Under the pieces are notes generated by a model. The model was not told where the DNA came from. It worked only from the letters and a program-made list of their open reading frames with translations, and did not search any database. Shown one piece after another: positions 38,401 through 51,247 of a DNA stretch of 64,000 nucleotides. How positions within the stretch are numbered: the stretch's first letter is position 1; each line of letters starts with the position of its first letter. The stretch covers positions 127,817 to 191,816 of the forward strand of contig CAVZHP010000005.1 in the NCBI GenBank assembly GCA_963775115.1, read 5' to 3'. A program made the translations under genes and the position numbers. The stretch is from an uncultured Alphaproteobacteria bacterium (lineage in GTDB: Bacteria; Pseudomonadota; Alphaproteobacteria; Sphingomonadales; Sphingomonadaceae).

Positions 38401-40491
38401 ATGGTCAGCACTCAGGATGGCGGCATCGCCGCCTTCATAGCTTGTGCCTCGGCAATCGCAGGGCAGGCAACGCCGAACGACGAGTTGATCCACAAATTCG
38501 GGCTCGACTCGCCGGTCCCGCCGTTCGCGGATTCGGACCTGACCGCAGCTCCTTATGTGCTGCCGGAAGTCGAGATCGGACAAGGCTATGCATCCGCCAT
38601 GCCGGTTCCGATGTTTGCCGCTGCCGGCACGAAAAATACGCACTATCTGCCATCTGCGGCCGGAACGGACCTGGCGCCAGATTTCGCGCCTTTAGCCAAG
38701 CCGCTGACGCACCAGAGTCAGGCGAAAGCCCAGGCTTCGCAACCGGAAATCGAACCCAGCCTGAACTACGCCCCTGCCATTCCGGCCCCGCAGTTTGCCG
38801 ATTCCGGGCTGCTGGATCCGCTGGACGCACTTGTAGCAGACGTGCCAAGCCCGCTTTACGCTCCGGTGACGCCGGTTTTGCCGGTCATGGCAACCGGAAC
38901 GCCAGGCCCGATGGCGGCACTGCCCGATGCTCCCGAGCGCCAGGATTATGCGCCAGGCAAGCCTGTCTCGCTGTTTGCCGATGCCGGCTTGTCCGATATG
39001 CTTTATGCCCCCGCCGAAGCCACGGCGGGTTCCGGTGCCGAACCGGTATCTCCTCTCATGCCGCATGCGTCCGGCAACCTGATCGATGTTCGCGAAGCCA
39101 TTCCGGCACCAGCGCAGGGCAGCAGCTTCAAACTGCCCCTCCCCGTCCCGGCCCAGGCAGACGTCGGCATGGCCGAGCCTTCGGAGGACCAGGCAGCGGC
39201 ATCGCCAGGTCAGACCATGCCGCGAACAGATCCCGGACAGCAGGCGATCCTGGACCGGCTGAACCGGCTTGAGGAGCAACTGCAATCGCAAAGAGTGCAG
39301 TTGTCCGAGCAGGCCGGGATCATTTCCAGTCAGCAGAAAGAAATCGAGGCGTTGCGCCAGCAGGGGGCAAACGATGCCGCGCTTGCTGTTCGCGCCCGGG
39401 GCACCGGCAATATGGTTCAGCCGCTTTTTGGCATGCAGGCTGCGACAGCGCCCGCAACCTCCGCAGCACCTGCAGCGCTTGCGCCGGTAACCGCTTCAGG
39501 CAGGCCCGCAATGCCCCCGCAACCTGTTGGCGAAGCGCCGGCGGAAGCCGAGCCCAGGGTTGAGCGAGTTGTTACCGCCGTGCCCGAAGGCCTGGGCGTG
39601 CTGACGCCAAAAGGCCGCTTTGTCTACGATCCTTCATTCGAATACTCGCGGTCCTCGACCAACCGGCTGGTATTCCGGGGCTTCGAGCTGATCCCGGGCA
39701 TTCAGATCGGCGTAATCGAAGCAACCGATGCGGATCGCGACACGCTCGCGCACACGTCCACGCTGCGCTACGGACTGACCAACAGGCTGGAAATCGAAGC
39801 CAGAGTGCCGGTGTTGTACCGGCATGACAGGATCGAGGTTGTGCAACAGCGCGATCAGGGCATTGTCCGTTCGATCGAACTGAGCGAAGGCAACATAGGC
39901 GATGCTGAATTTGCCATCCGCTATCAACTTAACCGGCCAAAGGGCGCGCAACAGCCGATTTTCGTCGGCAGTGTCAGAGTCAAGAGCGACACCGGAAAAG
40001 GGCCCTTCGATGTCGGCTACGATACATTCGGGGTGGCCACAGGTCTGGCGACCGGTTCCGGATTCTGGGCGGTGCAGCCCGGACTGAACTTCCTGCTGCC
40101 TAGCGATCCTGCGGTGATCTATGGATCCGCGTCCTATGTCTATCATATCCCGCGGAACGTGAACCGCATCATTGGCGGCGCTTTCGTTGGCAGGGTCGAT
40201 CCGGGCGATGCGGTCAGCGCCAGTCTCGGTTTCGGTTTTGCCCTCAACCCCCGCTTCTCATTTTCGCTCGGCTACGGACACACTTATATTTTCCCGAGCA
40301 AACAAGAGATCGGCGGAACCTTGCAGCGCTCGAAGTCGCTTCAGGTCGGCAGTTTCAACTTCGGAATGTCCTATCGGCTCAGTCAGAAGCAGACGATGAA
40401 TGCCTCGTTCGAACTCGGGGCGACGTCGGATGCGCCGGACATGAGTTTTACACTTCGCTTCCCGTTCTCGTTTGGCGGCGGCGGCCGCTAG
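38401..40491 (+). CDS. FapF-like outer-membrane beta-barrel secretion channel with a long Pro/Ala-rich N-extension and coiled coil
   Basis: VPVLYR, IGDAEFAIRY, VRVKSDTGKGPF, TGSGFWAVQPG, DPAVIYGS, FALN, G.TSDAPD..F.L.FP follow the FapF motif order as recalled; coiled coil LDRLNRLEEQLQSQ. Confidence 0.85.
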   Translation: MVSTQDGGIAAFIACASAIAGQATPNDELIHKFGLDSPVPPFADSDLTAAPYVLPEVEIGQGYASAMPVPMFAAAGTKNTHYLPSAAGTDLAPDFAPLAKPLTHQSQAKAQASQPEIEPSLNYAPAIPAPQFADSGLLDPLDALVADVPSPLYAPVTPVLPVMATGTPGPMAALPDAPERQDYAPGKPVSLFADAGLSDMLYAPAEATAGSGAEPVSPLMPHASGNLIDVREAIPAPAQGSSFKLPLPVPAQADVGMAEPSEDQAAASPGQTMPRTDPGQQAILDRLNRLEEQLQSQRVQLSEQAGIISSQQKEIEALRQQGANDAALAVRARGTGNMVQPLFGMQAATAPATSAAPAALAPVTASGRPAMPPQPVGEAPAEAEPRVERVVTAVPEGLGVLTPKGRFVYDPSFEYSRSSTNRLVFRGFELIPGIQIGVIEATDADRDTLAHTSTLRYGLTNRLEIEARVPVLYRHDRIEVVQQRDQGIVRSIELSEGNIGDAEFAIRYQLNRPKGAQQPIFVGSVRVKSDTGKGPFDVGYDTFGVATGLATGSGFWAVQPGLNFLLPSDPAVIYGSASYVYHIPRNVNRIIGGAFVGRVDPGDAVSASLGFGFALNPRFSFSLGYGHTYIFPSKQEIGGTLQRSKSLQVGSFNFGMSYRLSQKQTMNASFELGATSDAPDMSFTLRFPFSFGGGGR

Positions 40492-40519: not shown

Positions 40520-41797
40520 TTACAGGCGGAAGGAAACGCCGGCGCTGAAGACCCAGGGATCGAGCTTGACCTTAGCTTCGACCGGAGCGCCACCGAAGGT
40601 GCCGCGGGTAGCGGGGCGCAGGAAGGCTTTCTTGACGTCGAAGAACAGCCCCCAGTTCTTGCCAACCATGACATCCGTTCCGGCTTCGAAGGCCAGTGCC
40701 AGGTCATTACTGACGCGCAAATTCTGGAACGCGCCATCCTTGGTGCTGAACACGATCATGTAGCTGGCGCCTGCGCCCACATAGGGACGAAAGCGGCCGG
40801 AAACCTTGGGATGATACTGTAGCGTGAACGCGGTCGGACCATAGCGGACGTCGCCCAGCTTCGGCAGCGCGCCAATGCTGCCGGCACCATAGACGCCGAT
40901 CTTGGGCGGCAAGCCGACGGTCGCGTTGACGGCAATGGTTTCTGTCAGGAAATAGCCGACCTGGAGAGTCGGGGTATGGTGCTCGAAGGTTGAAATGCCT
41001 TCGCCGGTCAGCGGCGCGCCTCCGACGACCATTTGCGCTTCGTCGCGCAGACGCAGGCTCGCCATGCCGAGCTTGACCGACCAGCGCTTGGTCGAATCGA
41101 GCTCGACGGATTCCGCTTCGTCGCTATCCTTGCCGAAATGCGCGGTCAGGCCCAGCTGAACAGTCAGCGGGTCGAGCACGGCGCGCGCGCGGACGTCGGC
41201 GAAACTGGTATAGGTGGCGTCGAGCGGAAGCTTGCCAGAAGCGCCGGTGTGATACCAAGCCTTGCGCACATCGGCGAAGATGCCCCAGCGCTTGTTGACC
41301 TTGTAATCGACGCCGGCGTGAACGTAGGGGCCATGCGCATTGGGGATGTTGAGCCCCACTGCGAGGCCATCGCGCTCCTGCGTCGTCAGCTGCAACTGGA
41401 TGCCACCGCCGACATAGGGCGAAAACTTGCCCTTGACCGGGTGAAAGCTGGCGCCAAGCGAGGCGAGCACGAATTCGTCGTCGCCAAGATTGGGCGTACC
41501 GGCCAACGATCCAGCGGGAATGTTGTTGGTTGTCGCCGGCGTAGAGAGCGATCCCTCGATGGCGAATTTATCGACCAGGTAATGACCCACCGTCACGACC
41601 TGGTGATAGGTCTCGCGGGTCTTGTAGGCAGCGGCAGGATCCTGAACGCTGTTGACGAACACTTCGCCCTTGTCGACCAGCTTGGTCCGGGCGGCAGCGA
41701 GGCGCACGAACGTGTCGCCTGCCTCTTGGGCTATGGCCGGGGTGCAAATCGAGGCACCAAGGCAAACGGCCAGAGCGTACAAGATGGTCTTCTGCAT
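40520..41797 (-). CDS. Tandem two-domain OmpW/AlkL-family outer-membrane protein
   Basis: Signal peptide; two OmpW units (KFSPYVGGG...WGIFADVRK...LDPLTVQLG and RFRPYVGAG...WGLFFDVKK...LDPWVFSAGVSFRL). Confidence 0.85.
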   Translation of the reverse strand: MQKTILYALAVCLGASICTPAIAQEAGDTFVRLAAARTKLVDKGEVFVNSVQDPAAAYKTRETYHQVVTVGHYLVDKFAIEGSLSTPATTNNIPAGSLAGTPNLGDDEFVLASLGASFHPVKGKFSPYVGGGIQLQLTTQERDGLAVGLNIPNAHGPYVHAGVDYKVNKRWGIFADVRKAWYHTGASGKLPLDATYTSFADVRARAVLDPLTVQLGLTAHFGKDSDEAESVELDSTKRWSVKLGMASLRLRDEAQMVVGGAPLTGEGISTFEHHTPTLQVGYFLTETIAVNATVGLPPKIGVYGAGSIGALPKLGDVRYGPTAFTLQYHPKVSGRFRPYVGAGASYMIVFSTKDGAFQNLRVSNDLALAFEAGTDVMVGKNWGLFFDVKKAFLRPATRGTFGGAPVEAKVKLDPWVFSAGVSFRL

Positions 41798-41847: not shown

Positions 41848-43302
41848 TTACCCTACCCGGCTAGCCCGGCCGCTGGGCCAGTAGGCTTGTTTGGTTGCCG
41901 GTGCTGGCAGCACATCGGCCGGAGCGATTTCAGCGACATCCTCGATAGTTACCGGATAATCGCGGTTGAGTGTTTCCAGTGTCGTCGTGCCGTCGAGCAG
42001 TGCCTGCTCCTCGATGCGCGCGGCATCGACCGAAGCCTGCAGGCGGCGGACGGCGTCGAACACATCGTGGGGGCTGTGCTTGGCCATGACCTGCAGACGG
42101 AAGCGCGCCTGGCCTTTGGGAACGGCTGGAAACTCGACGAGATTGGCGAGCAGGCCCATCGACGGAAGCCGGCGGCTGGCGAGGCGGGCGAGCGCCTCGG
42201 TGCCCATCTTGACGCAGACAATCGCGGAAGGATCGCCATATGTCTCAAGACCGCATTCGGTGAGCAGCGTACGCAGCATGTTGATGTTGGTCATCAGCTT
42301 CTTGCGCAGACCGGCACCTTCATCGCTCTCGACAATTTCAAATGCTTTGCAGACGATTGCAGCATTAACCGGAGACATGGCATTGGAAAACGTGTTCGGT
42401 GAGCTGTAATAGCGCAGATATTCCTTGATCGAGCGTCTGTTGCTGGCAACGAAGCCGCCGTTCGAGGCGAAGGTCTTGGAAAAGCTGCCCATCACCAGGT
42501 CAACCTTGCCGAGCATGCCCTGGGCCTCGATGAAGCCGCGGCCGGTGGGGCCAAGGTTGCCGAGATCGTGCGCGACATCGACAACCAGCGTGGCGTCGTA
42601 TTCATGGCACAGCGCCTGCAGTGCGGCGATGTCCGGCGTGTCCGAATCCATCGAGAACAGGCTCTCGGTGACGACGAGGATGCCGTTCTCGCGGTCGGTT
42701 TCGCGGATCTTCGCCAGCTTGGCGCGCGCGCCTTCGATCTGGTTGTGGCGGAACAGGTGGATGTTGCGGGTCGCAGCCTGCGCGCCTTCCTGCAGGCAGG
42801 CGTGGCTCAGCGCGTCCATGACGATATGGTCATTGGGGCGGACCAGCCCCTTGATCACGCCGAAGCCGGCCGCCCAGCCGGTCGGAAACAGGGCGACGTG
42901 CGTGGCCCCGAGGAAATTGGCGATCTTTTCCTCGAGCGCGATCGACATCGAGGTGTTGCCGACGAGCGCCGGAGAGCCAGCGCTGTGCACGCCGAAGTGA
43001 CGCATTACCTGCATGGCGGTATCGACGACGTCGGGATGCGAGGAAAGGCTCAGGTAATCCTGGCTGGCGAAATTGACGCCCTCGAACATGGCGCCTTCAT
43101 CGGTGCGGGCATTGCAGCGGGTGTGCGCACCAGTTTCGGTCGAGCGGCCCAGCGGCCAGGCACCAATCGCACGGCGGCGCTCCTGCCAGTCGAAGAAGCT
43201 TTCGACCCGATCGAGGATGTTCGAGCCCGGAATATACCGGAAATCGCGCATGCTGCCTTCGAGGGCATTGGCTGTTTCCGACTGAAATTGTGTGTTATTC
43301 AC
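41848..43302 (-). CDS. PLP-dependent alpha-oxoamine synthase family enzyme (BioF/Kbl/SPT/CqsA superfamily), substrate unknown
   Basis: NFASQDYLSL, D.LSHACL, ESLFSMDSD, DVAHDLG, GSFSKT (PLP lysine). Confidence 0.85.
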   Translation of the reverse strand: MNNTQFQSETANALEGSMRDFRYIPGSNILDRVESFFDWQERRRAIGAWPLGRSTETGAHTRCNARTDEGAMFEGVNFASQDYLSLSSHPDVVDTAMQVMRHFGVHSAGSPALVGNTSMSIALEEKIANFLGATHVALFPTGWAAGFGVIKGLVRPNDHIVMDALSHACLQEGAQAATRNIHLFRHNQIEGARAKLAKIRETDRENGILVVTESLFSMDSDTPDIAALQALCHEYDATLVVDVAHDLGNLGPTGRGFIEAQGMLGKVDLVMGSFSKTFASNGGFVASNRRSIKEYLRYYSSPNTFSNAMSPVNAAIVCKAFEIVESDEGAGLRKKLMTNINMLRTLLTECGLETYGDPSAIVCVKMGTEALARLASRRLPSMGLLANLVEFPAVPKGQARFRLQVMAKHSPHDVFDAVRRLQASVDAARIEEQALLDGTTTLETLNRDYPVTIEDVAEIAPADVLPAPATKQAYWPSGRASRVG

Positions 43303-43400
43303 CGCAGACCCAATCTCGACTGTATGTGGTTGTCAGCATCATAAGGCCACGGTATTTGCCTCATGCCTTACGTTCGTGCTTAATTTTCGACTAATTTCAG

Positions 43401-43769
43401 TTAACTATTGGCCGTGTGCTTCTCGATTTTCTCGATAAGATCGGGAAGCGAAACCGGCTTGGTTTCAAAGTCGACGCAGCCGACTTCGATGCTCCTCTGG
43501 CGGTCGCTTTCCAGAGCGTGCGCAGTCAGGGCAATCACAGGCAGATGAGCGGTCGCGGGATTGGCATGGATCAGCTTGGTTGCTTCCCAGCCGTCCATCG
43601 CACCGAGCGCCACGTCCATCAGCACGATCGCCGGCATCTCGCTCGCCGCCATGGCGACGCCTTCGGGTCCATCGACTGCGCAGACAACCGCGTAGTTGTT
43701 GCGCTCCAGCCGACGCTTCAGCATGTCGCGGTTCATTTCGTTGTCTTCGACGATCAGTATCTTTTTCAT
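43401..43769 (-). CDS. Single-domain response regulator
   Basis: ILIVEDN, LMD, ALTA, KP. Confidence 0.9.
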   Translation of the reverse strand: MKKILIVEDNEMNRDMLKRRLERNNYAVVCAVDGPEGVAMAASEMPAIVLMDVALGAMDGWEATKLIHANPATAHLPVIALTAHALESDRQRSIEVGCVDFETKPVSLPDLIEKIEKHTANS

Positions 43770-43793
43770 GGTTCTCTCTGCGACTAAAAGCGT

Positions 43794-45200
43794 TCAGGCG
43801 GCTTCGGCGAGCTTGACGTCGTCGCTGCAAATGGCCGGGATGATCAGCAGGTTGGCCGGACGCGCGCCTGACGGCGACGTCTCGATCCGGCCGCCGAGCA
43901 GCTGTACGAATTTCTGGGCCAGCACCATCTCGATACCAGTGCCGCCATATTTGGACGCAGAGTCGTCGTCTTCGTGCTCGAAACTGTCGAGTATGGCCTG
44001 CGGCTCGCGGATGCCACCGTCCTCGTCGAAGTCCACAACGGCAAATGCGAATTCGCGGGAGGCATGCTTGCTGATCTCCAGCTCGATGCGCCCGCCCGAT
44101 CGGCGGCCTGCGGTAGCAGCGCATATGTGCTGCAGCGCCTGGCCCATGATCTTCCAGTCGGTCTTGCCGGCGAGCTCTCCGGTCGCGGGAAGCTTGAAGT
44201 CCACCGCACATTGCGATGCAGCCAGCGCCTTTTCGATCGGCGTGCGCCATTCCCCTACATGGGTCGCGATCGACCCATAGGTCGGGTTGAGCGGCATCTT
44301 GCCTGCTTCGATCCGCGAATAGTCGAGAATGTCGTCGATCAGGCGGAGCAGGTTGGAGCCGGATTCATGCACATTGCGCAGGTCCTGCAGCAATTCGTCG
44401 TCCTGCTCGTCGGCGGCTTCCTCCATCAACAGATGGCTGTAGCCGATAATCGCATTAAGCGGCGTGCGCAGCTCGTGGCTCATGCTGGCGACAAAGTTGG
44501 CTTTCGCGGCGCTGGCCTGCTGCGCCGACAGAGTCAGGTTCTGAACGTTGTCGGAAATCGAATCCAGACTGCGAAGTTCTTTGGTGAATGCCCTCTGTTC
44601 ATTGAACATTCTAGCAAAATACAGCGCCATCATGGCGAAGTAGACGGCGACGCTGCCCATCGAGATCATGCCAATGGTCTGCATCGTCTTGAGATCGATG
44701 TAGGGCGTCTGATGGCCCGATAGCATCAGCGCAATGAACCCGCCGGCGCTGCCGAATATCTGCAACAGCAGGACGTTTCGCAGCCAGCCATCCTGCGGCA
44801 GGTAGAGGAAGGCCAGCAGCGGAAAGATCAGGATCCACGGCAGGAACGGTGAGCTCAGGCCGCCGAAGGCATAGCACGCCCACAGACCGCAGAAGATCAG
44901 GTTCTGAACCGAAATGACCGCCAGCGTGCTGTACAGCTTGGTCCACCGCAGCGCGAAGGGATAGGCCCAGAAGGCCAGAATCGAGAAGAAGAACACGAAC
45001 ACGCGGTAGTCGCGGCAGATGTCCATGATATAGAGGTAGGCGGGCAGCGAATTGCCGAGAAACGGCCCGAACACGTGGCTGATCATGAACATTCGCGCAC
45101 GCCGGTGCGAGGCCGGATCGGCAAGCAGTTCGGCCGGGATGAAATGATCGAGGAAACCGCTCAGGGTCCATCGTTTCGATTTTTCGGCCCATGATTGCAT
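43794..45200 (-). CDS. Membrane sensor histidine kinase with a degenerate ATPase domain
   Basis: About 6 TM segments; SHELRTPLNA H-box intact; N-box and G1 box altered. Confidence 0.85.
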   Translation of the reverse strand: MQSWAEKSKRWTLSGFLDHFIPAELLADPASHRRARMFMISHVFGPFLGNSLPAYLYIMDICRDYRVFVFFFSILAFWAYPFALRWTKLYSTLAVISVQNLIFCGLWACYAFGGLSSPFLPWILIFPLLAFLYLPQDGWLRNVLLLQIFGSAGGFIALMLSGHQTPYIDLKTMQTIGMISMGSVAVYFAMMALYFARMFNEQRAFTKELRSLDSISDNVQNLTLSAQQASAAKANFVASMSHELRTPLNAIIGYSHLLMEEAADEQDDELLQDLRNVHESGSNLLRLIDDILDYSRIEAGKMPLNPTYGSIATHVGEWRTPIEKALAASQCAVDFKLPATGELAGKTDWKIMGQALQHICAATAGRRSGGRIELEISKHASREFAFAVVDFDEDGGIREPQAILDSFEHEDDDSASKYGGTGIEMVLAQKFVQLLGGRIETSPSGARPANLLIIPAICSDDVKLAEAA

Positions 45201-45343
45201 CGAACATTCCTCCACGCGTCACGCCGGACCGACTTCATGTCGCAGCACGATACGATGACTGGTGGTTTACAGGATCAGGCGTTAAGTCCGCGTAAATCGC
45301 GACCCAGGTTAATTGTAATCGTTCAGTTCTACGGGCTTTGACG

Positions 45344-46942
45344 TCACTGGCCCGCCGACATCCGGCCAGGCAGGATTTCACTGTCCGGAAGCTGTATTCC
45401 GAGCTGCTTGAGCTGCAACAGTTCCGAACTGGCCTTAGCATCGGGCGCCAGCGGCTCGATTTGCTGTTTACCGCGATACTTTATCAAATCCTCGATCGGC
45501 ATCGGCGCGCCAATCTCGTAACCTTGGAGCAAATCGCAGCCGAGCAATTGCAGCAGGCGGACATGGTATTCATTTTCAACACCTTCGACCACAACCTTCA
45601 TGTCAAGGCTGTGACCGAAATTGATCATCGTGCGAATGATCTGCGTCGCCTGGCGCTTTTCGCCGACATTGCGCAGGAACGGCTTGTCGAGCTTGAGCGC
45701 ATCGAGCGAGAAGTGTTGCAGATAACTCAGCGAAGAATAGCCGGTTCCAAAATCGTCGAGGAACACCTGCACCCCGATGTCGCGCAGCCGGCTTATCGCG
45801 ATATGCGCCCGCTCCAGGTTTGAGATCAGCACGCCTTCGGTGATCTCGAGGATCAGCAGCTCGGGCGCGATCCGCGCGGCGAACAGGCGGTCAAACAGGC
45901 GGTGGACGAATTCGGGATGCTTGAAGTAGACCGGCGAGATGTTCACCGCCACGCCAACGTCGCCGAGCAGCTTGATAGTGTCGAACGCGCAGTCGAGCGT
46001 CCATTCGGTGAGGTCCTCGATGTGCCCGCTTTCTTCGGCAATCGGGATCAGCGTCGACGGCGAAATGTCGCCAAGGTCGGTCGACTTCCAGCGCAGCAGC
46101 AATTCAATGCTTGACATCTTGCCGCTGCGGGCATCGACAAGCGGCTGATAAACCAATGCAAGTTCGCTCTTCAAGGCCGACTGGCCAAGCGCCACGCGGA
46201 TCGAGCTTTCCATTGTCTGCCGGCCATCGAGTTGGTCGTCGAAGATCTGGAAGGCACCGCGCTGCGAGCCCTTGGCGGCATACATGGCGAAGTCCGCGCG
46301 GCGAAGCAGCACGTCCGCGCCGTCGATCCGCGGACTGCCGAGCGCAATGCCTACCGAAGCGCCGACATTGACCAGCTTGTCCTCGATCTGCAGCGGATCG
46401 CTCAACGCCTCAACGATTTCCTGGCCGATCGTCTCCAGCGTGCGCTGCGGATCGATCGGCAGGATCGCGGCAAACTCGTCACCGCCGAGGCGGGCGAAGG
46501 CAATCGCGTCTCCGATCACCGGCGCACATCGGCGTGCGACTTCGATCAGCACCTGGTCCCCGGCACGGTGACCCATGGTGTCGTTGATGTCCTTGAACTT
46601 GTCGAGATCGAAAAACAGCACCGCGATCTGCTCGATATCTTCCTCGACGACCTTGGCGAAGGCATGGTTGAAGGCGATGCGGTTGAGCAGGCCGGTCAGG
46701 GGATCGATATTCGCCTGGCGGTGAAGTTCCTTACGGACGAATTGCAGCTCGACATGCTCGAGCGTCATGCGGCGGTGCTGGTTGACCGCGAAGGACATTG
46801 CCAGCAGGCTGACCAGGCCCGCCGCCGCCGCCGCGCCCGGCGTGAGCGGTAACAGGCCCACACCCGCCGCACCAAGATAGGCCGGAGCGGTTGAGGCAGC
46901 AGCACCCTGAATCCAGGGCGTAAGGCTTGAGCGCAGGGTCAC
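45344..46942 (-). CDS. Membrane-anchored GGDEF-EAL protein
   Basis: RLGGDEF; IELLLRW (EAL variant); DDFGTGYSSL; GTG start overlaps the upstream TGA. Confidence 0.9.
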   Translation of the reverse strand: MTLRSSLTPWIQGAAASTAPAYLGAAGVGLLPLTPGAAAAAGLVSLLAMSFAVNQHRRMTLEHVELQFVRKELHRQANIDPLTGLLNRIAFNHAFAKVVEEDIEQIAVLFFDLDKFKDINDTMGHRAGDQVLIEVARRCAPVIGDAIAFARLGGDEFAAILPIDPQRTLETIGQEIVEALSDPLQIEDKLVNVGASVGIALGSPRIDGADVLLRRADFAMYAAKGSQRGAFQIFDDQLDGRQTMESSIRVALGQSALKSELALVYQPLVDARSGKMSSIELLLRWKSTDLGDISPSTLIPIAEESGHIEDLTEWTLDCAFDTIKLLGDVGVAVNISPVYFKHPEFVHRLFDRLFAARIAPELLILEITEGVLISNLERAHIAISRLRDIGVQVFLDDFGTGYSSLSYLQHFSLDALKLDKPFLRNVGEKRQATQIIRTMINFGHSLDMKVVVEGVENEYHVRLLQLLGCDLLQGYEIGAPMPIEDLIKYRGKQQIEPLAPDAKASSELLQLKQLGIQLPDSEILPGRMSAGQ

Positions 46943-47442
46943 TTGCCTATCCGATCCCTGGCCAGGAGCGCCCGCGCCTGATCGTGGAGCCGCTGCTCGA
47001 CCGTAGCCATCTCGCCGTCGATCGATCCGACGATTGCCTGCTGCTTGAGGTGCAGCGCCATACGCGCCTTGAGGATCGGCAGGTTGATCGGTTTGACGAT
47101 ATAGTCGTTCGCGCCAGCCTGCAGCGCCTGGATGACCGAGCTGTCCTCGCCGAGCGCGGTGCACATGATCACCGGCAGGCGAACGCTGTCATAGATCTCG
47201 CGGATCGCGACCAGGGTTTCGAGCCCGGTCAGTTCGGGCATCATCCAGTCGAGCAGCACCAGATCGGGCTTGCTGACAGAGATGATCGAGAGCGCCTTGC
47301 GGCCACTTTCGGCGACTACGGGTACATAGCCGCCGCTGGTCAGCGCGCGCTGGAGCAGAACGCAGTTGTCCTCGATATCGTCGACGATAAGGATCGTGCG
47401 GCGGCTGTCGGCCGGGCGAAGCGGGAGGATCGGCGCGTTCAT
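46939..47442 (-). CDS. Response regulator (REC plus short helical tail)
   Basis: ILIVDD, LLDWMMP, GANDYIVKP. Confidence 0.9.
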   Translation of the reverse strand: MNAPILPLRPADSRRTILIVDDIEDNCVLLQRALTSGGYVPVVAESGRKALSIISVSKPDLVLLDWMMPELTGLETLVAIREIYDSVRLPVIMCTALGEDSSVIQALQAGANDYIVKPINLPILKARMALHLKQQAIVGSIDGEMATVEQRLHDQARALLARDRIGK

Positions 47443-49418
47443 GCCGCCATCTCCTTCAGATGCGCGGCAATTTCGCGCGGCGACAGCGTCCCCTTGCTGC
47501 AGAACTTGTAGCCGGCATTGATGATCCGCTGGTGATCTTGCATGGTCAGGTCGCGCGCGCTGAGCACGATCGCCGGAACATTAGCCAGATCCTTGTCCGC
47601 AAGCAGTTCTTCCATCAGGCTGAAACCGTCGGAATTTGGCATGGCGAGATCGAGTACCAGCGCGCTCGGCCGCTTTTCGCGGGCCATGCGCAGGCCTTCC
47701 TCGCCGTCCCGCGCCCGGCGACCGGCAAAACCTACCTGGGCGGCGCAGCGCAGGACCAGTTCGGCGGCATCGTCATCGTCCTCGACGACGAGAATGTCAC
47801 CCTTGGCCGGACTTTGATAGACCTCCAGCATCGAGCGCAACTGCTGCTCAGCGATCGGTTTGCGGACATATTCGGTGGCACCCAGATTGAGCCCACGCGC
47901 GCGGTCGTCCTCGACAGTGACGAGGATGATCGGCGTCTCGGCGGTCCTGGGATTGCTGCGAAGTTGCTCGAGGACATCGTAGCCCGAGCGCCCGGGCATC
48001 AGCACGTCGAGCAGGATCAGGTCGAAATTCTGTTCGAAGGCCTTGGCCAGACCCGTATCGCCGTCGATTGCGGTGATCACCGCATAGTTGAGCCTGCCGA
48101 GCCAGCGGCGCATCAGGTCGAGCGAAGCCTCGTTGTCATCGATGACCAGCACCTTGCGTTTCTGCCCGTCCGCAGCCTCGTCCGACGTTCCCGCTTCGGC
48201 AGGTGTTTCGCCCTGATCGGACCGCTGGGCGGCGTAGGCCTTGCCGCGGGCCAATGGATTCACCGGGAGAACGAGCGTGAAAGTCGATCCCTTGCCAGGT
48301 GTGCTTTCCGCGCGAATGTCGCCGCCCATCAGGCGGGCCAGCCGGCGGCTTATCGCGAGACCAAGTCCGGCGCCACCCTTCTTGCGGGTCGAGGACGCAT
48401 CCGCCTGGCTGAAGGTCTCGAACTGTTCTTCGAGCTTGTCCGGCTCAATTCCCATGCCCGAATCGGTGACGGCAAAGGTCACGATTGTCGGAATGCGCCT
48501 TTCGTATTCAACCTGGACATCGAGAACGACGCTGCCGGCTTCGGTGAATTTGAACGCATTGCCGAGCAGATTGTGCAGACATTGACGGATCTTCAACTCA
48601 TCGCCGATCATCACACCGATATCGTCCTGAACGGCGACACCGAAGTTGCAGCCATTGCGCCCTTCCCCCTCGGCGTATTCACCGGCGATCGTAGCGACCA
48701 ACGCCGCGACATCGACGACAGTGCGCTCGACCAGCGCCTTGCCGGTCTCCAGCTTCGACAAGTCGAGCAGGTCGTTGATCAGCGTCAGAAGGTGCCGCCC
48801 GGCAAGCTGGATGCGCTCGAGATCGGCGACGGCGGCTGCATTGCCGGCCGCGGCGGCGTCCTCGTGGAGCAACATGGCGTAGCCCAGCACTGCGTTGAGC
48901 GGGGTGCGAAGTTCATGGCTCATGTTGGCAAGGAATTGCGATTTGGCGACATTCTGCAGATTGGCCTGCTCGCGCGCCTGTTCCAGCTTCACCAGAGCAT
49001 CGCGGCTGCGCGCTTCGGCAAGGCCGTAGCGCTGGCGCAGCAGCTCGATGTCGGCAGCCAGCTGCGAAGCAGAACCCGATTGCGGCCCGGCCAGCTGGAG
49101 CTGCTCGAACACCCTGTCGCCCGAAAGCTCGAGATGCGCGGTGATCATGTCGATCGGCTCGGCCAGCACCGGCGCCAGCCGCGCTGCGAGGCGGCCAGCG
49201 GCGAGCCACACCGCGGCGAGGCCCGCTGCTGCACCCATCGCCAGACCCGCTGCGGGGTGAAGCTGCGGCGCCAGAAACAAGCTGCCACCCGCAACCAGCG
49301 ACGTCACCACCGGCGCCAGCGCTGTCGCGCCGAGCGCCTGACGGCGAACGACATTGGCAACGCCGCCTGCCAGGCTGGCAGGCTTCACATCATCGAGCGG
49401 GAATTGCTCATTTTTCAT
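47439..49418 (-). CDS. Hybrid histidine kinase with two receiver domains
   Basis: SHELRTPLNA, NLLGNAFKFT, DSGMG, GAGLGL; REC LLDVLMP and VLDLAMP. Confidence 0.9.
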   Translation of the reverse strand: MKNEQFPLDDVKPASLAGGVANVVRRQALGATALAPVVTSLVAGGSLFLAPQLHPAAGLAMGAAAGLAAVWLAAGRLAARLAPVLAEPIDMITAHLELSGDRVFEQLQLAGPQSGSASQLAADIELLRQRYGLAEARSRDALVKLEQAREQANLQNVAKSQFLANMSHELRTPLNAVLGYAMLLHEDAAAAGNAAAVADLERIQLAGRHLLTLINDLLDLSKLETGKALVERTVVDVAALVATIAGEYAEGEGRNGCNFGVAVQDDIGVMIGDELKIRQCLHNLLGNAFKFTEAGSVVLDVQVEYERRIPTIVTFAVTDSGMGIEPDKLEEQFETFSQADASSTRKKGGAGLGLAISRRLARLMGGDIRAESTPGKGSTFTLVLPVNPLARGKAYAAQRSDQGETPAEAGTSDEAADGQKRKVLVIDDNEASLDLMRRWLGRLNYAVITAIDGDTGLAKAFEQNFDLILLDVLMPGRSGYDVLEQLRSNPRTAETPIILVTVEDDRARGLNLGATEYVRKPIAEQQLRSMLEVYQSPAKGDILVVEDDDDAAELVLRCAAQVGFAGRRARDGEEGLRMAREKRPSALVLDLAMPNSDGFSLMEELLADKDLANVPAIVLSARDLTMQDHQRIINAGYKFCSKGTLSPREIAAHLKEMAA

Positions 49419-49442
49419 GGATGCGGTTTCCTAAGGACTTAA

Positions 49443-50843
49443 TTACGCAGCAAGGTCTTGCGGCTGTTCGGCGGGTTGGCCGCGAGTCATCGGCAGCTTG
49501 ATGGTGAAGGTCGACCCGATGCCGCGCTCGGAACTGACGGCAATCGAGCCGCCCATCATCGTGCAGAAGCGCCGCGTCAGGGCGAGGCCAAGGCCGGTCC
49601 CGCCGAATTTCTCGGAAGTGTCGTTTTCTGCCTGGCTGAAATCGGAGAACAGGCGGCTCAGCCCATCCCTGGTCATACCGATGCCGTTGTCGGCTACTTC
49701 GATGCGCAGCACTTCGCTGCCATCGTCGTCGTTGCGGATGCAGTTGACCGACAGCATGACGACGCCCTTTGTCGTGAATTTAGCGGCGTTGCTCAGCAGG
49801 TTGAGCACCGACTGACGCAATTTGAGCGCATCGAGCTGCAGTACGCCGAGATCCTCGGGCATATCGACGATAAGGCGATTCTCGCGGCGCTTCACCAGCG
49901 GCGCGGCGGTGGCGACGACGTCATCGACCAGCGAAGTCAGCCGGATCGGCTTCGCCAGCACTTCCAGTCGGTTGGCCTCGATCGAGGACAGGTCGATCAC
50001 GTCATCGACCAGCGCGAGCAAGTGACGGGCGGCGGCGCTGATCCGGTCGAGATCCGACATCTTGCGCTCGTCGCTGCCCTTGTCCTCGTAGGTTTCACGC
50101 AGCATTTCGGTGTAGCCGATCACCGCGTTGAGGGGCGTGCGCAGTTCGTGGCTCATCTTGGCGAGGAAGATCGATTTGCGCTTGCTGGCCAGTTCCGCCG
50201 CTTCCATCGCCTCGCGCAGCGACTGCAGCTTCATGCGCTGCGCATCGGTCTCAAGCTCGGCCTGGGCGCTGTTGCGCATAACCTTTTCGTAATAGAGCGA
50301 CAGGATCGTCATGTAGACCAGCGCCGCGCAAATCGAGAGAAGATTGGCGAATTTCAGGCTTTCCTGGGTCAGGATGTCGGGAAAATCACCGAGCAGCGCT
50401 CGCGCCGTGAAGAACAGGGCGAGCTGGGTGCCGACACCGGCAAGAATATAGGCGACTTTGTCCGCGAGGAAGAAGAAGCCGAGCCCCATGGCGATCAGGA
50501 ACCAGGGCAGGAACGGCGAGCTGATGCCGCCGAAGAAGAACGATCCGAACAGGCTGAGGCAGACCAGCATCTGCGCGCTCAGCATCGCCGGCGTCACCAG
50601 ATTTCCGGCCACCCGCAAGATCAGCGGGATGGCGAAGAAGCTGACCACCAGCGCCTCAGTCACCCAGAATTGCCAGGTCGAAACTGCGGTTGTGCGCGCG
50701 AGAAAATAGGTAACCGAGTGCCCCATCAGCGGCCCGATGAAGTGCAGCGCCACGAAGGTGCGCGCCATCAGCCGGTCTAAATCGCTCTCGCCGATCTGGT
50801 CTGGAATGAACCAGTCCACAAAATCCAGCAGCTTCTGAAACAT
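49443..50843 (-). CDS. Membrane sensor histidine kinase
   Basis: About 6 TM segments; SHELRTPLNA, NLLSNAAKFT, DNGIG, GTGLGL all intact. Confidence 0.9.
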   Translation of the reverse strand: MFQKLLDFVDWFIPDQIGESDLDRLMARTFVALHFIGPLMGHSVTYFLARTTAVSTWQFWVTEALVVSFFAIPLILRVAGNLVTPAMLSAQMLVCLSLFGSFFFGGISSPFLPWFLIAMGLGFFFLADKVAYILAGVGTQLALFFTARALLGDFPDILTQESLKFANLLSICAALVYMTILSLYYEKVMRNSAQAELETDAQRMKLQSLREAMEAAELASKRKSIFLAKMSHELRTPLNAVIGYTEMLRETYEDKGSDERKMSDLDRISAAARHLLALVDDVIDLSSIEANRLEVLAKPIRLTSLVDDVVATAAPLVKRRENRLIVDMPEDLGVLQLDALKLRQSVLNLLSNAAKFTTKGVVMLSVNCIRNDDDGSEVLRIEVADNGIGMTRDGLSRLFSDFSQAENDTSEKFGGTGLGLALTRRFCTMMGGSIAVSSERGIGSTFTIKLPMTRGQPAEQPQDLAA

Positions 50844-50956: not shown

Positions 50957-51247
50957 TCAACAGGAAACGATTTTCGCGCCGAAACGCCAGCCCACGGCCC
51001 AGCGGACTTCCGCCCGGACTGGGCCGCGATCGGGTATGATGACCTCGACCATGCTGCCAAGCCGGACCTTGCGTTCGCACTCGGCCATGAAACCGCCATC
51101 GGAAATGTTGGCCAGGCGGCCGATCAGCTCGCTGTCATTCTCGTCGGTGATGCGCACGGAGAAATCGCAGGCCCAGCGCGGTGCACGTTGCACGTGGCAA
51201 GCGGGAGCCCGGGCAGGCGTTTTGTCGACCGGATTGGCGGCTAGCAT
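50957..51247 (-). CDS. Stand-alone PilZ domain protein
   Basis: RAPR followed by NISDGG; 96 aa. Confidence 0.75.
   Translation of the reverse strand: MLAANPVDKTPARAPACHVQRAPRWACDFSVRITDENDSELIGRLANISDGGFMAECERKVRLGSMVEVIIPDRGPVRAEVRWAVGWRFGAKIVSC

Follow-up and report, generated by a model that had tools for sequence, protein, structure and literature searches.

To our knowledge, autoinducers made by an alpha-oxoamine synthase (AOS), CAI-1 and LAI-1, have been described from the CqsA/LqsA clade alone, whose members operate with the receptors CqsS and LqsS. Gammaproteobacteria and Betaproteobacteria account for most of these systems. The hybrid kinase CqsS feeds LuxU/LuxO and transcription, and Lqs signalling is connected to c-di-GMP metabolism. 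The Lqs system of Legionella includes the synthase LqsA, the paralogous six-TM kinases LqsS and LqsT, and the response regulator LqsR (PMC3376566).

We analysed a stretch of 64,000 nucleotides (the window) from an uncultured member of the Sphingomonadaceae, in which an AOS gene has kinase and receiver genes as neighbours. An earlier note on this DNA had reported these neighbours from the sequence alone, and Pfam annotation confirmed them. We found that the AOS belongs to a conserved eight-gene module, made up of a histidine kinase (HK1), a hybrid histidine kinase, a receiver, a GGDEF-EAL protein, a second kinase (HK2, a predicted pseudokinase), another receiver, the AOS and a double OmpW. A literature search, in which subscription journals were thinly covered, returned no published description of such an AOS-kinase module. 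The genes, with the PilZ gene beside them, are as follows.

40520..41797, minus strand: double-OmpW outer-membrane protein, 425 aa, tandem, with a signal peptide; 50 bp 3' of the AOS gene
41848..43302, minus strand: AOS of the kinase-linked subclade, 484 aa, catalytic residues intact
43401..43769, minus strand: RR120, a stand-alone receiver of 122 aa, between HK2 and the AOS
43794..45200, minus strand: HK2, six-helix DWFIP/GGxSSPFLPW sensor and HisKA, H-box intact
45344..46942, minus strand: membrane-anchored GGDEF-EAL protein, likely start GTG at 46942
46939..47442, minus strand: RR160 receiver, 167 aa; its start overlaps the hybrid kinase stop codon
47439..49418, minus strand: hybrid histidine kinase, 659 aa, HisKA-HATPase-REC-REC
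49443..50843, minus strand: HK1, six-helix sensor as in HK2 and a complete HisKA-HATPase core
50957..51247, minus strand: small PilZ-domain protein, upstream of HK1

The likely GTG start of the GGDEF-EAL gene overlaps the RR160 stop codon as GTGA, and a scan of the module for promoters and terminators performed no better than on shuffled sequence. The AOS gene had been described as the end of an operon; this did not hold, as the double-OmpW gene comes 50 bp downstream of it. The sole output domains of the module are GGDEF and EAL, and none of its genes encodes a DNA-binding output. The lack of a DNA-binding regulator fits a position of the AOS upstream of the relay, rather than as its transcriptional target. 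RR120, which has no output domain, is better conserved across lineages (63-82% identity) than any other component of the module. The hybrid kinase lacks the DWFIP sensor domain; its presumed role is that of an intermediate in the phosphorelay. As judged from its complete catalytic core, HK1 is the predicted active kinase paralogue; the N and G1 boxes of the HK2 ATPase domain are degenerate in all orthologues, and HK2 is predicted to be a pseudokinase or a partner of phosphatase type, conserved as such. In loci L013 and L014 the module also has PilZ genes at its flanks, and the PilZ protein is a possible c-di-GMP effector of the circuit. The double OmpW is kept beside the AOS in Sphingomonadales modules; outside them one OMP_b-brl or OmpW barrel takes its place, and small outer-membrane barrels of these kinds recur beside the AOS in separate lineages.

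The AOS gene is an intact open reading frame with a GTG start, which is supported by an 88%-identical homologue that starts at the aligned position. Pfam matched the protein to Aminotran_1_2 (PF00155, 8e-39), and its AlphaFold model (pLDDT 78.5) aligned with Kbl and SPT structures at TM 0.73-0.75; a fold search with this model returned generic AOS matches only (Kbl, SPT, BioF and ALAS), with no more closely related solved structure. An alignment to BioF and Kbl of E. coli revealed that the catalytic histidine (H167), the PLP-N1 aspartate (D242), the second histidine (H245), the PLP lysine (K276, in an SFSK motif) and the carboxylate-binding arginine (R400/R402) are all retained. Fold and active-site residues place the protein in the alpha-oxoamine synthase superfamily (PLP fold type I, PF00155), and its intact active site predicts a catalytically competent enzyme. 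The motifs by which the earlier note had recognized a PLP fold-I enzyme, DVAHDLG (residues 242-248) and SAGSPALVG (within HSAGSPALVG, residues 106-115), are both in this reading frame. The comparison motifs that it gave also matched real sequences: DDAH in E. coli BioF, DDSH in E. coli Kbl, DEAH in the SPT of this genome and DESH in CqsA-type synthases. The signatures of the AOS clade are an N-terminal extension (about residues 12-75), TGWAAG in place of the canonical SG(F/Y)xAN, and DVAHDLG. The DVAH signature is thus present as described, but it is not peculiar to this enzyme: a non-acidic residue after the PLP aspartate (V, A or I) marks a whole large AOS clade, including FAAL-ACP-AOS fusions. 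Because the motif also occurs in these biosynthetic fusions, which do not look like signalling proteins, it is by itself no sign of an autoinducer synthase.

To assign the AOS to a family, we used the curated NCBIfam equivalog cut-offs for BioF, Kbl, SPT, ALAS and CqsA as thresholds, and found that it falls under all of them. It scored 276 bits against the bioF model (TIGR00858, cut-off 426), 238 and 214 bits against the Kbl models (NF005394 and TIGR01822, cut-offs 460 and 493), 181, 242 and 230 bits against the SPT models NF047603, NF047599 and NF047600 (cut-offs 670, 500 and 640), and 172 bits against the ALAS model (TIGR01821, cut-off about 338-339). Against the CqsA-type model (NF005526) it reached 185.7 bits, whereas the cut-off is 428 and true members score 469-684 bits. 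In our tree, a branch with 100/100 support splits the AOS clade from BioF, Kbl, ALAS, SPT and CqsA; the CqsA clade (11 rows) is monophyletic at 100/100 with a long stem, and the AOS lies in another 100/100 clade. The tree thus groups the enzyme with none of these families, and the earlier note's description of its clade as atypical was borne out by both scores and tree. The genome carries four other AOS-family genes: two true ALAS genes (654 and 659 bits), a separate SPT gene that looks truncated (643 bits) and a separate BioF-like gene (at G000:C3). None of the four lies in the window, and the genes on either side of the AOS are signalling and OmpW genes, with no tdh; the claim that bio, tdh and sphingolipid neighbours are lacking therefore stood for AOS-family paralogues and for an adjacent tdh. 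These results bear on the idea that the enzyme is a spare BioF, Kbl, SPT or ALAS isozyme that lies by chance among signalling genes. Its best NCBIfam score is indeed that against bioF and its best PDB sequence match is Kbl; however, every score is far under the family cut-off, the 100/100 branch sets it apart, the genome has dedicated ALAS, SPT and BioF-like genes, and the AOS is present in 31 of 33 loci found through the sensor domain. We regard this explanation as highly improbable.

The closest relatives of the AOS outside the module are C-terminal domains of FAAL-ACP-AOS and FAAL-ACAD-ACP-AOS proteins, represented here by the uncharacterised P0138, P0151, P0161 and P0164, at 42-53% identity. 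Among these fusion domains the kinase-linked AOSs group in a single nested subclade (98/87), which argues for a fatty-acyl substrate. The AOS in the window is free-standing, and so must draw its acyl group from the CoA or ACP pool of the cell. As a counterpoint, these nearest non-module relatives resemble ordinary biosynthetic domains, not signal synthases.

The sensor shared by HK1 and HK2 lies wholly within the membrane; it has about six hydrophobic segments and lacks a periplasmic domain. Pfam searches with full-length HK1 and HK2 gave no match in the sensor region, and NCBIfam searches with the isolated sensor domains gave noise only (E 0.01-0.07). We considered whether the domain is a CqsS/LqsS homologue and rejected this: hhalign returned a probability of 0.2-0.3% against a profile of eight CqsS/LqsS sensors, a value on which three profile-profile comparisons agreed, one of them including CqsA-paired 'bridge' sequences, and FPQPYENL, one of the motifs by which the first TM helices of CqsS/LqsS are marked, is absent. 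We found, however, that members of this sensor family adjoin true CqsA-type synthases, which pass the CqsA-type model (469-489 bits, cut-off 428), in three further genomes of Alphaproteobacteria, and that these CqsA-paired sensors are homologous to those of HK1 and HK2 (hhalign 99.9%, E 4e-37). The pairing of this sensor family with CqsA-type synthases provides independent support for a relationship of synthase and receptor.

We defined the module as an AOS of the 98/87 subclade with at least one DWFIP/GGxSSPFLPW six-helix kinase, a stand-alone receiver and a GGDEF/EAL output. All of these components are present in the window, and the module is also found in L006, L007, L009, L012-L014 and L011, as well as in 31 of the 33 long metagenomic loci described below. 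It recurs in at least seven Sphingomonadales loci, and its flanks differ in every genome; carriers with unrelated flanks include Erythrobacter alti, Sphingomonas longa, Sphingobium, Allosphingosinicella and Pontixanthobacter MAGs, among others. A Stellaceae MAG has a rearranged module (AOS, receiver, hybrid kinase, kinase) with the same sensor domain in both kinases, and a second metagenomic lineage (lineage 2) carries the module with the GGDEF-EAL function fused to a receiver as REC-GGDEF-EAL. The link of the AOS to signalling genes, as the earlier note had drawn it, thus extends well past one locus, given the differing flanks and the rearranged order in Stellaceae. Within Sphingomonadales the AOS is 72-88% identical, a high conservation without diversification of synthase and receptor; such diversification is typical of many autoinducer systems, and its absence here counts against a signalling role.

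When metagenomic loci were instead found via the sensor domain (at least 5 kb of flank, n=33), the AOS clade was present in 31 of them, at 59-77% identity. Two long loci, L061 and L114, lacked it; a neighbouring AOS in L114, considered as a non-orthologous replacement of the synthase, turned out to be simply hemA. Among 201 Sphingomonadales genomes, neither the AOS nor a convincing sensor match occurred outside this genome; one other had a marginal sensor match (E 3.3e-4). Among 401 alphaproteobacterial genomes, all three that carry the AOS also carry the sensor, and the remaining three with a strong sensor match are those in which it adjoins a CqsA-type synthase. The module is split in genome G827, where the AOS and the kinase are 786 kb apart and RR120 stays with the kinase. 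Both this split and the two long loci without the AOS weigh against the reading of the AOS as a signal synthase for these kinases. An exact-pattern AOS scan of species genomes found three loci only, as its patterns were too strict, and we therefore estimated the distribution from the sampled genomes: the module is present in about 0.5% of sampled Sphingomonadales and alphaproteobacterial genomes. This rare but widely scattered occurrence suggests that it is a mobile signalling cassette.

We think it reasonably probable that the AOS makes a hydrophobic, aminoketone-derived signal that is sensed by the kinases of the module, with c-di-GMP as the output; such a circuit would be an analogue of Cqs/Lqs assembled from other parts. 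The enzyme would condense an amino acid with a fatty acyl thioester, either acyl-CoA or acyl-ACP, to yield a hydrophobic alpha-aminoketone or one of its hydroxyketone or pyrazine-type derivatives. The double OmpW barrel may let this molecule cross the outer membrane, and the released product would be the cognate signal of the two paralogous six-helix kinases, with HK1 as the putative active kinase and HK2 as a partner with its phospho-histidine retained and its ATP-binding boxes missing. Via the stand-alone receivers and the hybrid kinase, the ligand state would then reach the GGDEF-EAL protein, if phosphate flows in this direction, and the resulting change in c-di-GMP turnover may be read by the adjacent PilZ protein.

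If it is instead the kinases that regulate the AOS, synthase and kinase genes would be just as likely to be inherited together. On such an account, the kinases would sense another membrane or environmental cue and control AOS activity through protein-protein contact with RR120; the AOS product, perhaps a secondary metabolite, a volatile pyrazine or a surface lipid, would be an effector and not the ligand. RR120 is suited to this role in that it lacks an output domain and adjoins the AOS, directly upstream in Sphingomonadales and directly downstream in Stellaceae; its rank as the most conserved module protein is expected of a protein with several docking partners, and the closest non-module relatives of the AOS are biosynthetic fusion domains. 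Yet in the split module RR120 remains with the kinase while the AOS stands alone, the sensor family adjoins true CqsA-type autoinducer synthases in three genomes, and the GGDEF-EAL protein is already a clear enzymatic output of the pathway. Moreover, the synthase product is the kinase ligand in every studied Cqs/Lqs system (PMC3376566). We consider regulation of the AOS by the kinases unlikely, though it deserves to be kept in view.

The intramembrane sensor also invites an explanation in which the product of the AOS is an unusual long-chain base or aminolipid, kept in the cell's own membranes. The kinases would monitor such lipids in cis and adjust c-di-GMP, and OmpW would help to place the lipid in the outer membrane, so that the circuit is a private feedback loop and not cell-cell signalling. 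The wholly intramembrane sensor of about six hydrophobic segments is consistent with this, as is the fact that SPT and Kbl account for the structural matches and for several of the top profile scores; in addition, the host order makes sphingolipids, and the canonical SPT gene of this genome looks truncated. However, reductase, N-acyltransferase or other lipid-tailoring genes travel with the module in no locus examined, the module also occurs outside Sphingomonadales (in Stellaceae and lineage 2), and presence in about 0.5% of sampled Sphingomonadales and alphaproteobacterial genomes would be odd for a structural lipid. An envelope-lipid role thus appears quite improbable.

Returning to the reading in which the AOS product is sensed by the module kinases, the earlier proposal of a new autoinducer synthase fares well in part: the atypical clade, the recurring link to signalling genes and the pairing of the sensor with CqsA-type synthases speak for it, but the module is not a member of the Cqs/Lqs family. 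A broader and more tentative hypothesis, to which we give slightly less than an even chance, is that AOS-made lipid signals have a second family of receptors in the DWFIP/GGxSSPFLPW domain, of separate evolutionary origin from CqsS/LqsS. This domain may belong to a hidden family of aminoketone/hydroxyketone circuits, with CqsA-type partners in some Alphaproteobacteria and FAAL-ACP-AOS-related synthases in Sphingomonadales, Stellaceae and a soil lineage. In such circuits, an active kinase and a pseudokinase receptor, derived from an ancient duplication, would act through a phosphorelay on c-di-GMP turnover, possibly with ClpXP-type turnover of the synthase and kinases via their shared C-terminal Ala-Ala tails; an AOS orthologue has such an -AA end. 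Should the module act in the way proposed above for the AOS product and the kinases, it would add a synthase clade and an unrelated intramembrane receptor family, both of them new, would link lipid-type signals in environmental Alphaproteobacteria straight to c-di-GMP and thereby to decisions on biofilm and motility, and would account for a set of 'orphan' CqsA-type synthases that have no CqsS neighbour. Cultured carriers exist (Sphingomonas longa BT552 and Erythrobacter alti), which opens the hypothesis to routine genetics and LC-MS.

How, then, does the module compare with known systems? Like Lqs, it clusters an AOS-family PLP synthase with a receiver and a histidine kinase whose sensor is purely transmembrane, it has one synthase for two paralogous receptors (a role that is proposed here), and it lacks a DNA-binding domain. 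Unlike Lqs, its synthase lies outside the CqsA/LqsA clade (186 bits versus 428; 100/100 separation), its sensor is non-homologous and without FPQPYENL, and one of its two putative receptors is a predicted conserved pseudokinase; it also adds a hybrid kinase, a second receiver, a GGDEF-EAL protein, a PilZ protein and an OmpW barrel. Whereas LqsR combines a receiver with a unique C-terminal domain, the 122-aa RR120 is receiver-only, and BLASTP gave no alignment between it and a 317-aa LqsR-type homologue whose gene adjoins that of an LqsA-type synthase. Membership of the Cqs/Lqs family was rejected, as synthase clade, sensor domain and response regulator all differ.

The AOS shares with Vibrio CqsA, the partner of CqsS in CAI-1 signalling, its superfamily and, by prediction, a PLP-dependent Claisen condensation that joins an amino donor to an acyl thioester; both systems have a single synthase gene without dedicated tailoring enzymes in the cluster, and a six-helix membrane kinase as partner. 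The module differs from CqsA/CqsS in that its output is c-di-GMP enzymes, and in that its synthase belongs to another clade and its sensor to another fold family. As far as sequence homology can tell, however, one receptor family appears to be common to the module and CqsA-type systems over part of the tree.

FAAL-ACP-AOS proteins have the N-terminal extension, TGW(A/M)AG and D(V/I)(A/S)HDL in common with the AOS; in these proteins the AOS domain comes joined to acyl-activating and carrier domains of its own, and they have no known kinase link. Finally, the AOS shares its fold and catalytic residues with BioF, Kbl, SPT and ALAS, and departs from these housekeeping enzymes in its longer N-terminus, in the replacement of the canonical Asn of SG(F/Y)xAN by Gly and of the acidic residue after the PLP Asp by Val, and in standing apart from pathway neighbours.

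We examined the alpha-oxoamine synthase (AOS) encoded by the following gene:

41848-43302, minus strand: AOS, an ORF of 484 amino acids

Both motifs quoted in the earlier note, SAGSPALVG and DVAHDLG, are present in the translated protein (HSAGSPALVG at residues 106-115; DVAHDLG at residues 242-248), as is an SFSK PLP-lysine motif (K276). Pfam assigned the protein to Aminotran_1_2 (8e-39), and its AlphaFold model (mean pLDDT 78.5) matched Kbl and SPT structures with TM 0.73-0.75. When aligned with E. coli BioF and Kbl, the SPT and ALAS of its own genome (G000) and CqsA-type enzymes, the AOS carries H167, D242, H245, K276 and R400/R402 at the conserved positions of the BioF/Kbl catalytic residues; the comparison motifs listed in the note (BioF DDAH, Kbl DDSH, SPT DEAH, CqsA-type DESH) likewise agree with the real sequences. 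An 88%-identical homologue starts at the aligned position, which supports the GTG start, and conservation is visible from about residue 12 onward.

We found that the AOS scores below every curated NCBIfam cut-off.

Scores of the AOS against NCBIfam models
bioF: 276 bits (cut-off 426 bits)
SPT-beta: 242 bits (cut-off 500 bits)
Kbl: 238 bits (cut-off 460 bits)
CqsA-type (NF005526): 186 bits (cut-off 428 bits)
SPT-alpha: 181 bits (cut-off 670 bits)
ALAS: 172 bits (cut-off 339 bits)

The housekeeping roles of the family are covered in G000, because two ALAS, one alphaproteobacterial SPT and one BioF-like paralogue (n=4) are encoded outside the window. That the AOS is simply a spare housekeeping enzyme is effectively excluded, as these scores, its phylogeny and its gene context all speak against it. 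The canonical SPT gene of G000 (L003, G000:C9:465319-466086) is itself unusual: its SPT-alpha match ends at position 327 of 399 and reaches 643 bits against the cut-off of 670, with the C-terminus out of frame. It represents a frameshift, pseudogene or assembly error, in an order that makes sphingolipids.

When 1.8 billion representative proteins were searched exhaustively with HMMER, the nearest relatives had 42-63% identity over query residues ~12-430, unusual N-terminal extension included. Many of these are C-terminal domains within larger proteins, arranged as FAAL-ACP-AOS or FAAL-acyl-CoA-dehydrogenase-ACP-AOS. The same large clade contains a cNMP-binding (cyclic-nucleotide-binding) domain joined to an AOS (P0137) and a flavin (FAD-dependent) monooxygenase-AOS (P0142), fusions whose domain content hints that sister lineages have second-messenger control or on-enzyme tailoring. 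In the main tree (IQ-TREE, 61 rows, LG+C20), this clade is set off by a 100/100 branch; BioF, Kbl, ALAS and SPT fall outside it, and a long stem leads to a separate 100/100 clade of CqsA-type enzymes. A quick tree of 122 rows gave the same picture. The clade is recognizable by its N-terminal extension, by TGW(A/M)AG in place of the canonical SG(F/Y)xAN, and by a non-acidic residue following the PLP-binding Asp. Because this last feature characterizes the entire clade, the DVAH signature proposed earlier is real in the alignment but does not specifically mark signalling enzymes. A PDB sequence search returned no entry from the clade, the best match being Kbl (185 bits).

The minus-strand gene order is PilZ, HK1, hybrid HK, RR160, GGDEF-EAL, HK2, RR120, AOS and double OmpW, with overlaps or short gaps between genes; HK1 and HK2 are paralogous kinases, and RR120 and RR160 are receiver proteins. 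Thus the AOS gene, which had been described as the last of its operon, is followed 50 bp downstream by the tandem double-OmpW gene. The 98-bp spacer between RR120 and AOS (43303-43400) is strikingly AT-rich relative to the 62% GC genome, and may provide AOS and OmpW with a promoter or operator of their own; a consensus promoter scan found no match within it. A gene at 38401-40491 (plus strand) is convergent with OmpW, the ORF ends being 28 bp apart; it encodes a putatively FapF-like 696-aa protein with a Pro/Ala-rich repeat N-terminus and a beta-barrel-looking C-terminal region, whose sole Pfam match is a weak one to the DUF3450 coiled-coil. Eight core genes recur with wholly different flanks at other loci:

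L006, Erythrobacter alti: eight-gene module
L009, Sphingomonas longa: eight-gene module
L013, Sphingobium MAG: eight-gene module
L014, Allosphingosinicella MAG: eight-gene module
L010, Pontixanthobacter MAG: eight-gene module
L007 and L012, two further contigs: eight-gene module

The two four-gene halves of the module are co-directional in the window and divergent at each of these loci. In a Stellaceae MAG, a receiver, a hybrid kinase and a kinase come after a 60%-identical AOS (DAAHDLG).

The N-terminal ~200 amino acids of HK1 and HK2 form a common domain (the DWFIP-type sensor) with roughly six hydrophobic segments and the invariant motifs D-x-F-x-P, R, H-x-x-G-P and GG-x-x-SP-x-x-PW. The domain, also present in both Stellaceae kinases, had no match among Pfam or NCBIfam models. 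In the sensor-domain tree, HK1-type and HK2-type sequences form two paralogue groups (99 SH-aLRT). Since each group holds members from Sphingomonadales, Stellaceae and lineage 2 (a second, more divergent module lineage from metagenome contigs), the split is ancient and the two-receptor design has been maintained. In HK2 orthologues the H-box is kept and the N and G1 boxes are gone; they are conserved pseudokinases, likely acting as phosphatases or hetero-dimer partners.

We also compared C-terminal tails across window 41848-50843 and loci L006, L007 and L012-L014. Nearly all HK1, HK2, hybrid kinase and AOS orthologues end in -AA, -VA or -VG: HK2 ends in AA at 6/6 loci, HK1 in AA at 5/6, and the hybrid kinase in VA at 5/6 (AA in the window), while 94 of 120 AOS homologues end in AA and the window AOS in RVG. 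Such tails were not seen on receivers, GGDEF-EAL or OmpW. ClpXP-type C-terminal degrons occur in Caulobacter CtrA and McpA, and the shared tails look like such a degron; if they are, the synthase and kinases would be under coordinated proteolytic turnover.

A metagenome contig search with the sensor-domain alignment as bait returned 80 loci. In 33 of them the relevant side extends for 5 kb or more, and 31 of these 33 have an AOS of this clade (59-77% identity); L061 and L114 do not. At L061 (OJBY01000037.1), an S1/P1 nuclease gene replaces AOS and OmpW, and HK1, HK2, RR120, hybrid HK, RR160 and GGDEF-EAL are retained; this receptor-only module is possibly a 'solo' listener. The AOS neighbouring the sensor at L114 was rejected as a clade member, being hemA. 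Lineage 2, which is among these loci, has sensors 33-40% and AOS 63-67% identical; one side comprises HK2, a receiver, an outer-membrane beta-barrel and AOS, and the other HK1, REC-GGDEF-EAL and GGDEF. Its relay is a shortened one, presumably passing from kinase to receiver-fused c-di-GMP enzymes, and it clarifies the output.

Among 201 sampled Sphingomonadales genomes, only G000 has this AOS clade and convincing sensor matches; one other genome gave a marginal sensor match (E 3.3e-4). The AOS occurs in 3 of 401 sampled alphaproteobacterial genomes, the sensor accompanying it in 3/3, so that the module is rare in these sparse samples of species genomes. A rival possibility is that the module serves a private membrane-lipid homeostasis loop; however, lipid-tailoring genes do not travel with it, and it also occurs outside the sphingolipid-making orders.

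Three further alphaproteobacterial genomes have strong sensor matches and lack this AOS clade:

L141, genome G756: CqsA-type synthase and DWFIP-type sensor kinase
L142, genome G881: CqsA-type synthase and DWFIP-type sensor kinase
L143, genome G586: CqsA-type synthase and DWFIP-type sensor kinase

In each, the kinase directly adjoins a synthase that passes NF005526 (469-489 bits; cut-off 428). Their sensor domains are homologous to those of HK1/HK2 (hhalign 99.9%, E 4e-37), and hhalign against canonical CqsS/LqsS sensors from eight recovered CqsA-type loci gave 0.2-0.3%, no homology. Thus the AOS-type synthases found repeatedly with this sensor family come from two different clades. The kinase next to a Cqs/Lqs synthase has the product of that synthase as its ligand (PMC3376566). 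By analogy, this pairing makes the best case for HK1 and HK2 as sensors of the AOS product, and in Alphaproteobacteria the DWFIP-type sensor looks like an alternative receptor, so far unreported, for alpha-hydroxyketone-type synthases. Alternatively, the kinases may regulate the AOS enzyme through RR120, which adjoins it and is extremely conserved (63-82% identity). Yet in G827 the module is split, with 786 kb of the same chromosome between AOS (L137) and sensor kinase (L138), and RR120 is found with the kinase; in the congeneric G939 (L139), AOS and the sensor kinase plus RR120 are adjacent. In addition, the pairing with CqsA-type synthases speaks for a ligand relationship.

From comparative genomics, the basis of all our readings of the module, we infer AOS substrates, product release, ligand binding and the direction of phosphotransfer as follows. 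The AOS would condense a fatty acyl thioester, suggested by its kinship with FAAL-ACP-fused domains, with an amino acid. The hydrophobic aminoketone, or a derivative, would partition into membranes, pass the outer membrane via the OmpW-type barrel and be sensed inside the bilayer by HK1 and HK2. Phosphate would then flow via RR120, the hybrid kinase and RR160 to tune the GGDEF-EAL balance, and the c-di-GMP outcome may be read by PilZ. Two features support such an output: the module contains no DNA-binding regulator, and lineage 2 has a REC-GGDEF-EAL fusion.

No published description of the module was found in literature of limited coverage. Its closest counterparts in function and architecture are Legionella Lqs and Vibrio Cqs; Lqs, similarly, comprises one synthase, two paralogous six-TM kinases and a receiver protein. 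The module nevertheless falls outside the Cqs/Lqs family, because its AOS fails NF005526 and sits in another clade, its HK1/HK2 sensor is not homologous to CqsS/LqsS, RR120 lacks similarity to an LqsR-type homologue, and its output consists of c-di-GMP enzymes. Together, these comparisons suggest AOS-synthase/membrane-kinase signalling assembled largely from non-homologous parts.
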